This document shows, piece by piece, positions 26,204 through 60,423 of a DNA stretch of 64,000 bases. A program made the position numbers and the translations under genes. The notes beneath the pieces are model-generated. The model was not told where the DNA came from and made no database searches. It was given only the letters and a program-made list of their open reading frames with translations. Source of the DNA: Ignavibacteriales bacterium (GTDB lineage Bacteria > Bacteroidota > Ignavibacteria > UBA10030); the NCBI GenBank assembly GCA_016192345.1, contig JACPUH010000021.1, positions 58,523 to 122,522 on the forward strand, given 5' to 3'. Positions within the stretch are counted from its first letter, which is position 1. Each line of letters begins with the position of its first letter.

Positions 26204-27148
26204 TCATACTTTTGTGAGTTTGTGAAACACCTCTTCGAGGCTTGTCGCTTTCCGTGTGAGTTCGAGCAGCACCCAGCGCTCCTGCACCGCTTGCCGGAAG
26301 ACCTCCTCCCGGATATCGCTTCCTTTTGCCGCAAACAGGGAAAACCGGTGAGCCCCGTTCTCGTCTCCTCCATACTCCACTGACTCGACGTTCGACAAGG
26401 CTTGGAGTTTTGGGAAGATGTCGACCATCGGATTTGCGACTTGTGTTTTGAGCTCGATCACGATCAACTCCGAGCCGCGGAACTCCTGTTGAAGCTGCCC
26501 CGGCGTACCGTCCGCCACAATCGCCCCTTCATTCACGATGACGACACGGTCACACGTCGCCTGCACTTCCGACAGGATGTGCGTGGAGAGAACGACCGTT
26601 TTCGCCCTGCCGAGTTGCCGGATGAGGTTGCGGATCTCGACGATCTGGTTCGGATCGAGCCCGCTCGTCGGCTCATCGAGGATCAATACTTCGGGGTCAT
26701 GGATCATCGCCTGGGCAAGGCCCACACGTTGCTTGTACCCTTTGGATAATTCACCGATGTCCTTGTGGCGGACATCCTTCAATCCGCATACCTCGATCAT
26801 CGAGGCAAGTTGTCGTTTCAGTGTGGCTTTGTCAATTCCGTGCAGGCGGGCGGCATACTCAAGGTACTCCACAACATTCATATCGAGGTAGAGCGGGTTG
26901 AGCTCCGGCAGGTACCCGATTTTCCTCCGCACCTCAAGCGAGTGGTCGGCAATATTGTAGCCATCCACATCCACCGTCCCTGCGGAGGGGGGCATGTAGC
27001 AGGTGATGATCTTCATCGTCGTTGTTTTTCCGGCCCCGTTGGGACCGAGAAAACCGACGATTTCTCCCGTTTTCACATCAAAGGAGATATTGTCGATAGC
27101 TTTTTCCTGCCCGTAATACTTGGTCAGGTTACGAACCGTGATGGCCAT
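26204..27148 (-). CDS. ABC transporter ATP-binding protein (GldA-like)
   Basis: Walker A GFLGPNGAGKTTTMKIITCY, ABC signature LSKGYKQRVGLAQAM and Walker B LILDEPTSGLD. Confidence 0.9.
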   Translation of the reverse strand: MAITVRNLTKYYGQEKAIDNISFDVKTGEIVGFLGPNGAGKTTTMKIITCYMPPSAGTVDVDGYNIADHSLEVRRKIGYLPELNPLYLDMNVVEYLEYAARLHGIDKATLKRQLASMIEVCGLKDVRHKDIGELSKGYKQRVGLAQAMIHDPEVLILDEPTSGLDPNQIVEIRNLIRQLGRAKTVVLSTHILSEVQATCDRVVIVNEGAIVADGTPGQLQQEFRGSELIVIELKTQVANPMVDIFPKLQALSNVESVEYGGDENGAHRFSLFAAKGSDIREEVFRQAVQERWVLLELTRKATSLEEVFHKLTKV

Positions 27149-27304
27149 GCGTGTTTCTTGATCATAGTGACTGTGTAGACTTCAACGGGAACTGTTGCAG
27201 CCGCGCCTTCCCAAAAGGGCCGTGTGATTTTAAAGAAAAAGAAAAAAAATGTCAAGGGCTTTATGGATTTTAGTGCAAACGCGATCTCACCATTCATCGG
27301 CTTT

Positions 27305-29885: not shown

Positions 29886-30941
29886 TCATCCCCATCGTCC
29901 CGGAATCTTCGTCCCACACTTAAAGCAACCCCCTTGCTGCAGTTTGTTGTTCACGACATGAAACCCGTTCCTTTCAATGACCGTGGCGCCGCAGCCGCGA
30001 CAAAAGGTGTTTTCATACTTTCCCACCTCTCCGGGTCGATTCCCCGCATACACATATCGCAATCCGGACCGATATCCGATCTCCGCGGCGCGTATCAACG
30101 TCTTCACCGGCGTCGGGTCGGGGTCGGTCATCTTATAGTCCTGATGGAAGGCGGTGACGTGCCACGGGATATCCGGTGAAACGGACTTGATAAAGTTCGC
30201 GATGTCGGTCAATTCTTCGTTCGAATCGTTGAAGCCCGGGATGGTGAGCGTGACGATCTCCACCCAGGTTCCCATCCCATGCAGCGTCTTGATCGTATCG
30301 AGCACGTTCTGGAGCACACCGCCAAGCTGCTGATACTCTTTCTGGCGGAACCCTTTCAGGTCCACTTTATACAGATCTACCCACGGCTTAATATATTCCA
30401 AAACCTCCGGCGTTCCATTGCCGTTCGAGACGTACGACGTGACCAGGCCAACGCTCTTCGCGAGCTTGAAGATCTCAACAGCCCATTCGCTGGTGATAAG
30501 GGGCTCGTTGTACGTGCTGGTGACGATGCGCGCCTTCGATCGCAACGCGGTATCAATGAATTGTTCAGGGGTGAAGAACTGTGGGGGGGAGATCGCTTCC
30601 GGATCGCGCAGGGCCTGGGAGGTCACCCAGTTCTGGCAATAGGGGCAGTGGTAATCACATCCCAACATCCCGAAGCTGAGCGCCTGGGAGCCGGGGTAGG
30701 CGTGGAAGAAGGGTTTTTTTTCGACGGGATCGAGGGCAACTCCGGCAGCATAACCCCACGGAACGAAGAGTTTTCCCCCCCGGTTAAACCGAACTCGACA
30801 GATGCCGTCCTTTCCCGGTCCGATCTTGCAGCGATGTCCGCACGCATAGCACCGGACCCAGTCATCGGGCATCGGTTCATACAACAGGCCTTCCCTGGTA
30901 TTCCCCGCAAGCAACTCCTTTAAGGTTCTCTCCTCCGCCAT
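29886..30941 (-). CDS. radical SAM enzyme, PflA-like / AmmeMemoRadiSam-type
   Basis: 351 aa. The N-terminal Cys-rich extension VRCYACGHRCKIGPGKDGICRVR, followed by GCDYHCPYCQNW (CxxxCxxC), fits the AmmeMemoRadiSam-system radical SAM signature. I cannot confirm the specific family, and no AMMECR1 or Memo partner is adjacent. Confidence 0.65.
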   Translation of the reverse strand: MAEERTLKELLAGNTREGLLYEPMPDDWVRCYACGHRCKIGPGKDGICRVRFNRGGKLFVPWGYAAGVALDPVEKKPFFHAYPGSQALSFGMLGCDYHCPYCQNWVTSQALRDPEAISPPQFFTPEQFIDTALRSKARIVTSTYNEPLITSEWAVEIFKLAKSVGLVTSYVSNGNGTPEVLEYIKPWVDLYKVDLKGFRQKEYQQLGGVLQNVLDTIKTLHGMGTWVEIVTLTIPGFNDSNEELTDIANFIKSVSPDIPWHVTAFHQDYKMTDPDPTPVKTLIRAAEIGYRSGLRYVYAGNRPGEVGKYENTFCRGCGATVIERNGFHVVNNKLQQGGCFKCGTKIPGRWG

Positions 30942-30995
30942 GCAATCACCTCGGGTACAAAGTACTTTGATTGGGGACTGATGTCAAGCGCGCGA

Positions 30996-31104
30996 AATCA
31001 GCAATCAGCGGTCAGCATTCCGCCTTCTGCCTTCTGCCTCCTGCCTTCTGCCCTCTACATCCTCCTTACCCTTTGCTACTTAATACTTATTACTTGTTAC
31101 TTTC
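30996..31104. repeat. three consecutive heptanucleotide tandem arrays in the promoter region of the AmmeMemo-type radical SAM gene
   Basis: (RATCAGC)x3 at 30996-31016, (TCTGCCT)x5 at 31018-31052 and (TACTTNN)x4 at 31077-31104. The plus strand is strongly G-depleted across ~180 nt. Confidence 0.7.
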
Positions 31105-31128
31105 TTCTTCCTGCTTCCATACCCCCTA

Positions 31129-32019
31129 CTACTTCTTTCTTATAAGCCCCCTCAACACCCTCATATTCTCCACATCCTCCTTCATCTCCGGTCCCTTGGG
31201 TGTTTCCAGAATCTTGGGGATGTTGCTGAAGCGCGGGTCATTCATCAAAAAAGAGAATCCTTGAATCCCAATTTTCCCTTTCCCGATATGCTCATGCCTG
31301 TCAACGCGTGAACCGAGTTCCCGCTTCGAATCATTGACGTGAAACGCAACAAGCCGGTCCAATCCCACGATTGTGTCAAATTCCCTGAACGTTTCTTCGT
31401 ACCCCCGCTCCGTCGAAAGATCGTACCCGGCCGCGAACACATGGCATGTATCCAAGCAGACCGCCATCCTCTCCCGTTCTTCAACCAGGTCGATAATCTT
31501 CCTCAAATGCTCGAAGCGGTAACCGATGGCCGTCCCCTGCCCCGCCGTTGCCTCGATGACGCTTCGCACGCCGTATCCCGGGGTGCGTTGGTGGATGACG
31601 TTGAGCGACTCGGCAATACGTTTGATTCCCTCTGCTTCCCCTGCTCCCATGTGGGCACCGGGATGAAAGTTCAGGTACTGTACACCGAGCGCTTCACATC
31701 GGTCGAACTCATCCTTCAAGGCTTCCCTCGACTTCTTCAGAATTTCCTTGTCCACCGCGCAGAGGTTGATCAAATAGGTATCGTGGACCACCACCGGATG
31801 AATCCTTGATTCCCGAAGCAGCTTTTTGTAGGTTGACACATCCTCATCGGTCAGCGGTTTCCCTTTCCATTGATTGTTATTTTTGACAAACATCTGCATC
31901 GTGGTGCATCCGATCCGTTGTCCACGCTCGACGGCGGTGGCGACACCTCCAGCAATCGACATATGGGCGCCGAGGAGGAGGGTGCTGTTGTTCAAAGGAG
32001 ACATTGCACGCTTTTTCAT
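31129..32019 (-). CDS. nfo: endonuclease IV (apurinic/apyrimidinic endonuclease)
   Basis: LLLGAHMSIAGGVATAVERGQRIGCTTMQMFVKNNNQWKG matches the Nfo N-terminus, and the conserved His/Glu/Asp metal ligands occur through the TIM barrel. The true start may be the internal Met 15 nt downstream. Confidence 0.85.
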   Translation of the reverse strand: MKKRAMSPLNNSTLLLGAHMSIAGGVATAVERGQRIGCTTMQMFVKNNNQWKGKPLTDEDVSTYKKLLRESRIHPVVVHDTYLINLCAVDKEILKKSREALKDEFDRCEALGVQYLNFHPGAHMGAGEAEGIKRIAESLNVIHQRTPGYGVRSVIEATAGQGTAIGYRFEHLRKIIDLVEERERMAVCLDTCHVFAAGYDLSTERGYEETFREFDTIVGLDRLVAFHVNDSKRELGSRVDRHEHIGKGKIGIQGFSFLMNDPRFSNIPKILETPKGPEMKEDVENMRVLRGLIRKK

Positions 32020-59408: not shown

Positions 59409-60194
59409 ATGAACAAAAAAAGAACCGCCCTCGCCATCGGCGCCCATCCGGACGACATTGAATTCCAGATGGCGGGTACGTTACTACTGCTCGAACGCTC
59501 GGGTTATGAGATCCATTACATGAACCTCGCCAGCGGCAATTGTGGCAGTGCAAGACATGACGCGGCGACCATCCGGCGCATCCGTCTCCGGGAGAGCCGG
59601 CGGGCCGCAGGTATCCTCGGCGCACAGTTTCACAAGCCGCTGTGCGACGACCTTGAGATCCTCTACGAACTGAAAACCCTCCGCCGCCTTGCGTCAATCA
59701 TCCGGGAGGTGCGTCCGTCGGTGGTCCTGACACATCCGCCGGTCGATTATATGGAAGATCATACCGCTACCTGCCGGTTGGTCGTTACGGCTGTGTTCGC
59801 GCGGGGTATGCGGAACTTTCGGACCATCCCGGTCCGTCCGGCAGCACAGTATGATGTAACCCTCTACCATTGCATGCCTCACACACTGCGCGATCCACTG
59901 AGACAACGGGTGCTCCCCGGAGCGTTCGTCAATATATCGACTGTTCAATCGGTTAAGATGGAAGCTCTGAGGGCCCACCAAAGCCAGCAGGGCTGGCTCG
60001 ATGCAAGCCAGAAACTCGATTCGTATGTGCAAACCATGGAGGAGATGGCGCGGGAGCTTGGGCGCATGTCGAAGAAATTCCGCTACGCCGAAGGATGGCG
60101 ACGGCATTCGCATGCCGGGTTCGGAGAACCGGACGACGACCCGTTGAAAGTGCTCGGGAAGGACTACCTGATCAATACCCTCTATGAACGCTGA
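59409..60194 (+). CDS. PIG-L/LmbE-family N-acetylglucosaminyl deacetylase
   Basis: Trimmed to MNKKRTALAIGAHPDDIEFQMAGT, which is the LmbE zinc-binding motif HPDDxE. Confidence 0.75.
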   Translation: MNKKRTALAIGAHPDDIEFQMAGTLLLLERSGYEIHYMNLASGNCGSARHDAATIRRIRLRESRRAAGILGAQFHKPLCDDLEILYELKTLRRLASIIREVRPSVVLTHPPVDYMEDHTATCRLVVTAVFARGMRNFRTIPVRPAAQYDVTLYHCMPHTLRDPLRQRVLPGAFVNISTVQSVKMEALRAHQSQQGWLDASQKLDSYVQTMEEMARELGRMSKKFRYAEGWRRHSHAGFGEPDDDPLKVLGKDYLINTLYER

Positions 60195-60195
60195 T

Positions 60196-60240
60196 TTCGC
60201 GGATTTACGCGGATGGACGCGGATGAACGCGGATTACGCT
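60196..60240. repeat. four 10-bp phased direct repeats CGCGGATNNN immediately after the LmbE-like gene stop
   Basis: cgcggattta cgcggatgga cgcggatgaa cgcggattac. The 10-bp period places all copies on one helical face. It lies 180 nt upstream of the NagB-like gene. Confidence 0.6.
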
Positions 60241-60423
60241 GATCGGTACGGAGGAGTGATTCCCAATGCATCGTCCGTGGTTAAAGAAGTATTTTTTCAC
60301 CACGGATGACACACCGAAAGACACGGAAAAAAAGAAAGAAGTTGAATTTTCAATATCAGTGCTTATCTGTGTGCCATCCGTGGATAAATCCCCTTAGCCT
60401 TTCCCACAATACCATGACACCCC

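Follow-up and report, generated by a model that had tools for sequence, protein, structure and literature searches.

The 187-nt spacer between nfo and a radical SAM gene of the AmmeMemoRadiSam system (30942-31128, with the minus strand as the sense strand) is occupied for the most part by a tandem tract of heptads. On balance, we consider it probable that this tract is a slowly evolving heptanucleotide long SSR/VNTR upstream of a conserved promoter and that, if it has a function, it most likely acts as an array of binding sites. The most defensible description of the locus is an intergenic heptanucleotide long SSR/VNTR of a kind that has already been described. The tract lies in a 64,000-nt (64-kb) stretch of DNA, which we refer to as the window.

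Anatomy and composition of the heptad tract

Read on the minus strand, 15 heptads run in a single uninterrupted register over 105 bases, from 31102 to 30998. The first of them form an (AAGTANN)4 sub-array (31075-31102, minus strand; aagtaac aagtaat aagtatt aagtagc, with the plus-strand form (TACTTNN)4), for which TRF gives 3.7 copies at 31077-31102, and AAGTARN-type units are also found after the nfo stop in four relatives (L082, L083, L090 and L091). A bridge of three degenerate heptads follows and keeps the register (31052-31074, minus strand; aaagggt aaggagg atgtaga); a repeat search indicated that its segment 31053-31067 duplicates the 3' coding sequence of nfo at 31168-31182 (15 nt, 93% identity, spacing 115). 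The next sub-array, (GCAGRAG)4 plus GCGGAAT (31017-31051, minus strand; (gg)gcagaag gcaggag gcagaag gcagaag gcggaat, with the plus-strand form (TCTGCCT)5), is the hypervariable portion of the tract. TRF reports it at 31018-31056 with 5.6 copies and a score of 57, and a GGAGGATGKAGAGG block lies 5' of this GCAGA array in all alleles that span the region. The last sub-array is (GCTGAYY)3 (30996-31016, minus strand; gctgacc gctgatt gctgatt, with the plus-strand form (RATCAGC)3), detected by TRF at 30996-31017 with 3.1 copies. An 8-nt linker, tcgcgcgc (30988-30995, minus strand), separates the last heptad from the -35 element of the promoter described below; it is unchanged in L082, reads cccgcgc in L002 and is missing in L083 and L091, whose heptads run right up to the -35.

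An earlier note on this DNA, made from the letters alone, had placed three period-7 arrays in this spacer, and TRF agrees with that placement. Across 30996-31104, 73 of 102 positions (0.716) match the base seven positions away, which corresponds to z=9.7 relative to all windows of equal length in the 64 kb, and the value is attained at only 5 positions of the window. None of 20000 local shuffles reached the observed match (shuffle mean 30, sd 4.4), and harmonics of the periodicity were seen at lags 14 and 21. The tract at 30998-31102 is confirmed as a true tandem heptad tract, with the intergenic position and the unit length (within 5-11 nt) of a heptanucleotide long SSR/VNTR. It is also degenerate: in the window allele, perfect period-7 repetition extends over no more than 18 nt (~2.6 units). 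The tract is non-coding, with a period of 7 that is no multiple of 3, and its 3' end on the sense strand lies 54 nt 5' of the radical SAM ATG and 5' of the promoter. Two plus-strand ORFs that span the repeats (30971-31264 and 30981-31145) were regarded as low-complexity read-through of the repeat. Tiny sense-strand ORFs (ATG-TAG 3' of AAGGAGG; MEAGRRK) were likewise set aside, with conservation that stops at the closest relative and poor Shine-Dalgarno spacing.

The plus strand over this region is extremely poor in G, as had also been pointed out before. The stretch at 31017-31196 (plus strand) is the most G-poor, pyrimidine-rich stretch of the window, the sense strand being purine-rich and C-poor. 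The lowest G counts of the whole window fall here, namely 3 in the 100 nt at 31079, 6 in the 150 nt at 31040 and 11 in the 180 nt at 31017; the next-lowest counts elsewhere in the window are 11, 20 and 28. The pyrimidine fraction is 0.80 (window mean 0.51, sd 0.05). Five of the 11 G residues in the 180-nt stretch are the lone G of each CTTCTGC unit, spaced by exactly 7, and the strand asymmetry reaches ~65 nt into the 3' end of nfo, where codons are purine-rich. The G-poor plus strand is accounted for by the purine-rich repeat units together with these purine-rich nfo codons.

Such a composition raises the possibility of non-B DNA, in which a purine strand with GG every 7 nt would fold into two-tetrad G-quadruplexes or triplex H-DNA and in this way affect transcription or replication. 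Purines make up 74% of the sense strand, GG is found in nearly all GCAGAAG or GGCAGAT units, and G4-forming heptamer repeats are on record for Xanthomonas and Nostoc (PMC4692102). However, no uninterrupted pyrimidine run exceeds 13 nt, an ordinary length for the window, and H-DNA would need a longer and less broken run; the G runs are GG only, never GGG, with loops of 5 nt; and the GCTGAYY and AAGTANN blocks are without G runs. We regard structure formation of this kind as very improbable. A C-rich, G-poor antisense transcript could also be pictured as a good loading site for Rho, a weak proposal in our assessment.

Flanking genes and a conserved putative promoter downstream of the tract

The assignment of the two flanking genes in the earlier note is borne out by profile matches. 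The upstream gene (31129-32019, minus strand) is nfo, encoding deoxyribonuclease IV (TIGR00587, 322.9 bits in NCBIfam; Pfam AP_endonuc_2, 206 bits), and the downstream gene (29886-30941, minus strand) is the AmmeMemoRadiSam-system radical SAM gene (TIGR04337, scoring 278.5 bits where 220 are required). The radical SAM protein of the window has the same sequence as MBI3110569.1, which comes from an Ignavibacteriales MAG; an exact-protein look-up of nfo (with two alternative starts) and of the PIG-L ORF found no identical entry on record. The radical SAM gene heads a minus-strand cluster that includes a DUF455-like gene, a second radical SAM gene, an ABC transporter and auxiliary genes. Judged by its gene content, the operon downstream of the tract looks to be of housekeeping type, unlike the surface and restriction-modification genes of contingency loci.

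The promoter-like element that had been noticed just downstream of the repeats is present and has counterparts in related loci. TTGACA (30987-30982), a 17-nt spacer and TACTTT (30964-30959) make up an element at 30959-30987 (minus strand) that ends 18 nt 5' of the ATG. The -35 equals the consensus. A generic sigma-70 scan misses this element, the -10 of which agrees with TATAAT at only 3 of 6 positions. Among orthologous upstream regions, TTGAC[AT]-N16-18-TANNNT is found in 27 of 79, whereas only 0.36% of random 90-nt segments drawn from those loci contain it. The ortholog elements end mostly ~13-19 nt 5' of the ATG and usually have the form TTGACA-N17-GTACATT, and the element of the window is one of only 3 matches to TTGAC[AT]-N16-18-TANNNT in the window. 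From this conservation we infer a sigma-70-like promoter 8 bp 3' of the tract, for which a very short 5' UTR (~10 nt) and a transcription start near 30951-30952 are predicted. A Shine-Dalgarno-like GAGGTGA (30946-30952, minus strand), identified by eye, stands 4 nt 5' of the ATG, and GGAGG-like blocks occur at the matching position in orthologs.

The position of the promoter relative to the repeats bears on how copy number could act. The earlier note had suggested that changes in copy number alter promoter geometry. This is not what the alleles indicate: the arrays lie wholly 5' of the -35, every allele has 17 nt between -35 and -10, and the distance from the core promoter to the ATG is constant.

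A scan for terminators predicted no intrinsic terminator between nfo and the radical SAM gene. It is therefore plausible that read-through from nfo supplements the operon's own predicted promoter. Read-through would place the repeats in RNA, as part of an nfo 3' UTR or intercistronic RNA that might serve as a platform for RNA-binding proteins, as an anti-Rho element or as a translation-related spacer. Besides the lack of a predicted terminator, this idea draws on the sense spacer RNA, which folds no more stably than shuffled versions of it (MFE -40.7 kcal/mol versus a shuffle mean of -42.2, z 0.38), on the fact that both arrays of the window start at or just past a stop codon and are sense to the upstream gene, and on the RNA roles that have been proposed for TAACTGA heptamers (PMC4679880). 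Several observations count against it. In L003 the homologous CTGA heptads were taken as lying in a divergent promoter region with no co-directional gene upstream, an insertion sequence lies between nfo and the array in L087-89, and the only match in a permissive Rfam scan of 30500-31600 was at chance level (E 8.8). A repeat search of the locus returned zero inverted repeats. We consider an RNA-level role quite improbable.

Whole-unit length variation among relatives

We compared the tract with the alleles of relatives, all from metagenome assemblies, for which identity to the window refers to nucleotides of the radical SAM gene, except in L003, where it refers to amino acids. The spacer of L001 (99.8%) is identical over its 110 nt, and the contig stops at the array edge; SRR12113422 contains the same strain as the window (99.8% nt). 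L082 (96%, with 93% in nfo) has GCAGAAG zero or one time, GCTGAYY four times and AAGTANN ~3.5 times. In L002 (88.6%) a (GCAGAYG)32 array with a TRF score of 324 is followed by (TCTGACY)5, the 32-unit allele (JBBEBV010000202) being that of a short-read MAG contig and its count possibly mis-estimated. L091 and L092 (88.8% to the window, 97.6% to L002) have (GCAGANN)7 and then (GCTGAYC)2 abutting the -35. Seven GCAGA-type and two CTGA-type units are present in L083 (86%), four and none in L090 and L087-89 (86-87%), and ~6 and 3-4 in L084-86 (78%), and L003 (79% aa) has three CTGA heptads. More distant orthologs retain the promoter with the repeats absent. Across alleles, the number of GCAGA-type units is 0-1, 4, 5 (the window), ~6, 7, 7 and 32.

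The closest length contrast can be broken down completely. The spacers of the window and L082 (187 versus 160 nt) differ by -28, +7, -3 and -3, which fully explains the difference in length; the -28 equals four GCAGAAG units and the +7 one GCTGACC unit. Two independent within-species contrasts are available, 5 versus 0-1 GCAGA-type units at 96% nucleotide identity and 32 versus 7 at 97.6%, and in the second of these, L002 versus L091/L092, the CTGA-type units also differ (5 versus 2). Judged from these alleles, gain and loss of whole 7-nt units is shown to shape the tract, as replication slippage or unequal recombination would yield, and the tract is by the same comparison a lineage-specific VNTR whose length is polymorphic in whole-unit steps. 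The invariance of copy number that the earlier note had named as counting against its proposal was not what we found, as relatives differ by exact units.

The proposal itself was a slipped-strand contingency locus; at such a locus, high-frequency heptad changes would turn radical SAM operon transcription on and off, or grade it, among the members of one population. The part that stands is the whole-unit difference in copy number between near relatives. It is also in line with such a locus that contigs break at the array, the L001 contig ending inside it and the L002 contig starting only 44 nt 5' of it; the break at the array edge in L001 could reflect heterogeneity. Further, the 32-unit array of L002 contains runs of 4 identical units and hence is slippage-prone, and heptamer SSRs that grade expression are known, for example (ATCTTTC)n at hmw1A (PMC12721329). 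The part that finds no support is fast switching. The arrays are outside the constant 17-nt -35/-10 spacer, so that unit changes leave promoter spacing untouched, and the window allele has at most ~2.6 perfect units. The available spacers are identical in contigs with identical proteins from independent samples or assemblies (L084/L085/L086 represent three SRA runs, L087-89 three ENA assemblies and L091/L092 two sources), as far as consensus assemblies, which hide minority alleles, can tell. In addition, the downstream genes look housekeeping, and the source is a free-living environmental MAG, not a host-adapted pathogen. A classic contingency locus is in our opinion unlikely.

A strong rival to a functional reading is that the tract is a neutral VNTR, a by-product of slippage in a non-essential spacer that affects neither gene and whose unit core reflects descent and homogenisation. 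Several alleles speak for this reading. L082 is nearly without the GCAGA block and the L090/L087-89 lineage is without the GCTGA block, in both cases with promoter and genes intact, and the spacer of L087-89 contains an IS481-like element between nfo and the array. The CTGA heptad array of L003 was here taken as lying between convergent genes, a non-promoter context. By manual alignment, the spacers of the window and L082 differ by substitution at ~6% of aligned positions, which is near, and not clearly below, the value for third codon positions (8.5-14%). The core pattern aside, constraint is not strongly indicated. Intergenic heptanucleotide long SSRs are also common without known function, according to PMC4679880, which cites Mrazek 2007. 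Against neutrality stand the retention of the array at this site in lineages down to ~78% nucleotide identity and two features of the unit core that are taken up below, its position-specific variation and its recurrence in a second array of different period. With both sides weighed, we regard a neutral tract as a serious possibility, though less than probable.

A conserved unit core and a second array

To describe the unit, we used 43 lineage-distinct units from the GCAGA and GCTGA blocks. The information per position is 0.96, 1.84, 0.67, 1.41, 1.57, 0.46 and 0.02 bits, which gives the consensus R-C-W-G-A-H-N with a fully free position 7; this contrast between position 2 (1.84 bits) and position 7 (0.02) is the position-specific variation that argues against neutrality. 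The AAGTANN block likewise follows a 5+2 pattern. In the GCAGA blocks of five lineages, a hand tally gave at least 21 substitution types, with 19 at positions 1, 6 and 7 and 2 at the core positions 2-5 (hand-calculated binomial p ~1e-5 if events are independent, an independence that array homogenisation does not guarantee). Eight contiguous GC(A/T/G)GA units share one register in the window, with a conserved core, as heptad operator arrays require. Core conservation could also stem from shared descent with concerted evolution, or from a position-specific mutation bias; unit variation in L002 consists largely of T/C and G/A transitions.

In the window as in L082 and L002, the distance of every core from the -35 is exactly divisible by 7. 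In more distant lineages the heptad register relative to the -35 differs (7k, 7k+1, 7k+3 and 7k+4), and this shift between lineages argues against a strictly positional activator.

The earlier note had seen nothing comparable elsewhere in the window. We found a period-10 tandem array at 60188-60243 (plus strand), which reads GCTGATTTC GCGGATTTAC GCGGATGGAC GCGGATGAAC GCGGATTAC GCTGATCGG (TRF 5.8 copies, score 56) and begins on the stop codon that ends a PIG-L family gene. Since this ORF continues into the repeats, homologs have different C-termini. The same array is present in a relative (L095, 92% identical), the contig of which ends within it. A GCKGAT core is common to the period-10 array and the heptad tract, and nowhere in the window is GC[ATG]GA more densely clustered than in these two arrays, where 60 nt contain 7 and 6 copies versus at most 3 at any other site. 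An exact 12-mer, GCTGATTTCGCG, in the period-10 array equals 30991-31002; alone it is not significant (by estimate, a 180-nt query should give ~1 such match by chance in 128 kb), and its weight comes from its position within the other array. One core at two periods is hard to attribute to slippage alone and is the best hint of sequence-specific recognition.

Further heptads of the same type, which the earlier note had proposed to look for upstream of other genes, did not turn up in the 64 kb: a search of the window for heptad triplets (CWGA-N3 x3) gave matches at the nfo-radical SAM locus only. In ~700 kb of related loci the only other plausible array is that of L003, and matches in L005 and L038 are at chance level.

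Comparison with known repeat systems and possible function

The tract resembles heptanucleotide long SSRs in being an intergenic 7-nt tandem with several heptamers side by side, and in having relatives that differ by 7-nt indels or are without the array, with contigs that end inside it. The cyanobacterial STRR sequences belong among these prokaryotic intergenic heptanucleotide long SSRs. Heptanucleotides are given as the commonest long SSR unit in prokaryotes in the part of PMC4679880 that cites Mrazek 2007. Mixed heptamer assemblages with 7-nt indels between strains have been described in Cyanobacteria and Bacteroidetes, and TAACTGA repeats in Cyanobacteria, Beggiatoaceae and Bacteroidetes (MacGregor 2015, PMC4679880); contigs that end in heptamer arrays are reported for Elizabethkingia (PMC4679880). 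One unit family of the window shares a CTGA core with the TAACTGA family, and the host likewise belongs to the FCB group. The units GCAGRAG, GCTGAYY and AAGTANN nevertheless differ from TAACTGA, which places the tract outside that family. The window has one heptad locus and one 10-mer locus per 64 kb, whereas TAACTGA-type repeats number hundreds per genome, and its array lies upstream of a promoter, whereas TAACTGA sets lie mostly directly before start codons. Ignavibacteriota is not among the long SSR hosts listed in PMC4679880, and the phylum is outside those covered by the published heptanucleotide repeat surveys that we considered.

Two repeats with effects on expression provide a further comparison. 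Copy number of the (ATCTTTC)n repeats at hmw1A and hmw2A of Haemophilus influenzae varies between strains; these repeats are perfect, have at least 11 copies and lie in the 5' UTR, where they form a long RNA hairpin cut by RNase III (PMC12721329, PMC8262952). Like hmw1A, the window has 7-bp tandems upstream of a gene with copy number that varies between strains; the dependence of expression on that number belongs to hmw1A. Unlike the hmw repeats, the tract of the window is degenerate and lies 5' of the predicted promoter, and its RNA is without a hairpin (z 0.38). At nadA of Neisseria meningitidis, perfect tetranucleotide TAAA repeats are located upstream of the -35, the regulators are NadR and IHF, and phase variation of the surface adhesin has been demonstrated. 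The likeness to nadA consists in an SSR upstream of the -35 and outside the promoter spacer, where copy number could shift the geometry of upstream operators or architectural factors, whereas the tetranucleotide unit, the regulators NadR and IHF and the demonstrated phase variation are those of nadA alone.

A closer parallel to heptads as binding sites is provided by the omega protein (RHH, ParB) of pSM19035, which binds 5'-WATCACW-3' heptads in operators and parS with one RHH dimer per heptad (PMC9499535). This system is a precedent for one dimer per heptad and cooperative binding. As in the window, the omega heptads are contiguous, ungapped 7-bp units at promoters with a conserved 5-bp core and variable flanks, and plus-strand AATCAGC of the window agrees with WATCACW at 5 of 7 positions. 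The omega sites, however, comprise direct and inverted heptads and overlap the promoter, and the RHH protein is encoded adjacent to them, whereas all units of the window are direct, lie 5' of the -35 without overlap and have a different core sequence. Even the heptads of L083 and L091, which directly adjoin the -35, do not overlap it, unlike omega operators. Pfam found neither an RHH gene nor another small regulator that could be a candidate heptad-binding protein among 10 small ORFs of the window. The alternative offered in the earlier note, that the heptads are binding sites, draws some support from the RCWGA core with free positions 6-7, and the result for these small ORFs counts against it.

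Returning to the long SSR/VNTR upstream of a conserved promoter that we favour, its history can be put together as follows. Gain and loss of whole 7-nt units, of the kind that replication slippage or unequal recombination would give, have taken the GCAGA block between ~0 and 32 over evolutionary time, with the -35/-10 core and the distance to the ATG unchanged. The window tract itself would be slowly evolving and length-polymorphic, whether as an evolutionary tuning knob or as neutral sequence, and less likely a high-frequency ON/OFF switch. If there is a function, the RCWGA core, the free positions 6-7 and the GCKGAT array at a 10-bp period make a binding-site array the most likely one: the units would be adjacent sites for a cooperatively binding, sequence-specific factor 5' of the promoter, and their number would set occupancy. 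We put forward, as a tentative and rather doubtful extension, that the heptad tract and the period-10 array are both sites for a putative sequence-specific protein of Ignavibacteriota, and that the slippage-driven number of sites (0-32) tunes the AmmeMemoRadiSam operon. Such a binder might repress cooperatively, act as a roadblock or serve an architectural role.

Even if the tract is a neutral VNTR, it would offer a marker for strain typing and a warning about assembly breaks in Ignavibacteriales MAGs. The natural series of alleles (~0, 4, 5, 6, 7 and 32 units) before one conserved promoter is a test bed for tuning versus factor binding. Should the tract indeed be an array of binding sites, it might offer a first way into what heptanucleotide repeats do in the FCB group and in Cyanobacteria.

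The nfo gene end and the adjoining spacer

The spacer between nfo (31129-32019, minus strand) and the radical SAM gene (29886-30941, minus strand) holds a heptad tract at 30998-31102, which includes the hypervariable GCAGA array (31017-31051, minus strand) and a bridge of three degenerate heptads (31052-31074, minus strand). A 15-nt direct repeat, reading CTCYACATCCTCCTT on the plus strand and AAGGAGGATGTRGAG on the sense strand, matches the bridge (31053-31067) to the 3' coding sequence of nfo (31168-31182). Part of the spacer may have originated by duplication of the nfo gene end. The GCAGA array is preceded by the block GGAGGATGKAGAGG in every allele that covers this part. While nfo ends in tandem stops in the window (TAG TAG, 31129-31134), a single TAG is found in the relative L082, a 3-nt indel at the beginning of the repeat-rich spacer.

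Downstream of the nfo ortholog in another relative, L005 (3330-3580), a purine-rich arm containing AGTA is followed by a complementary TACT-rich arm and then by an octamer array, (TACTCCAC)6. Taken as a pair, the two arms resemble a long, imperfect inverted repeat. The arrangement may represent an ancestral version of the repeat region that follows nfo, or an alternative one. In one lineage (L087, L088 and L089), nfo and the heptad tract are separated by an inserted IS481-like transposase gene (327-1295, and 1-1330; NF033577, E = 5e-14, below cutoff). The insertion junction is CTAG, which is uninterrupted in L090, and all three contigs begin within the element.

Putative promoters and leaders

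The short-leader promoter of the radical SAM gene (TTGACA-N17-TACTTT, 30959-30987, minus strand) is absent from the orthologs in L004 and L006. In both, TTGACT-N17-TATCTT is located further upstream, about 110 nt before the radical SAM ATG, and the leader of about 110 nt that follows, which contains repeated ttccgaa/ttcggaag hairpin-like motifs, may be a different cis-regulatory leader. The sole other intergenic match to TTGACA-N17-TANNNT within the window, TTGACATTTTTTTTCTTTTTCTTTAAAAT at 27227-27255 (minus strand), lies 79 nt upstream of an ABC-transporter ATPase gene (26204-27148), which suggests an internal promoter inside the gene cluster.

Tandem arrays at other sites

A period-10 array of 5.8 copies (unit GCGGATNNAC, 60188-60243, plus strand) begins on the stop codon of a gene from the PIG-L family and has a GCKGAT core and an exact 12-mer in common with the heptad tract. 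The same array is present in the relative L095 (2238-2318), whose contig ends within it. The C-termini of homologs differ (YER*, YERRLRGLRG*, YERRLR*) because the ORF extends into the repeats.

Of the 29 better tandem repeats found across 83 sequences (about 706 kb), 10 have period 7, making it the commonest class; 5 of these 10 come from the homologous locus. In other Ignavibacteriota lineages, heptamer arrays directly follow the 3' end of that radical SAM gene: (AAGGTTG)9 in L075 (5040-5105), and (CGTAATG)3.7 with (ACGTTTC)3.4 in L028 (5098-5173). The relative L003 carries a second CTGA-core heptad array (1379-1404; units cctgact, cctgaat, tctgact and tctgctt), which fills the 40-nt gap between two convergent genes. 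Given this position, CTGA-type heptad arrays in the group are not restricted to promoters.
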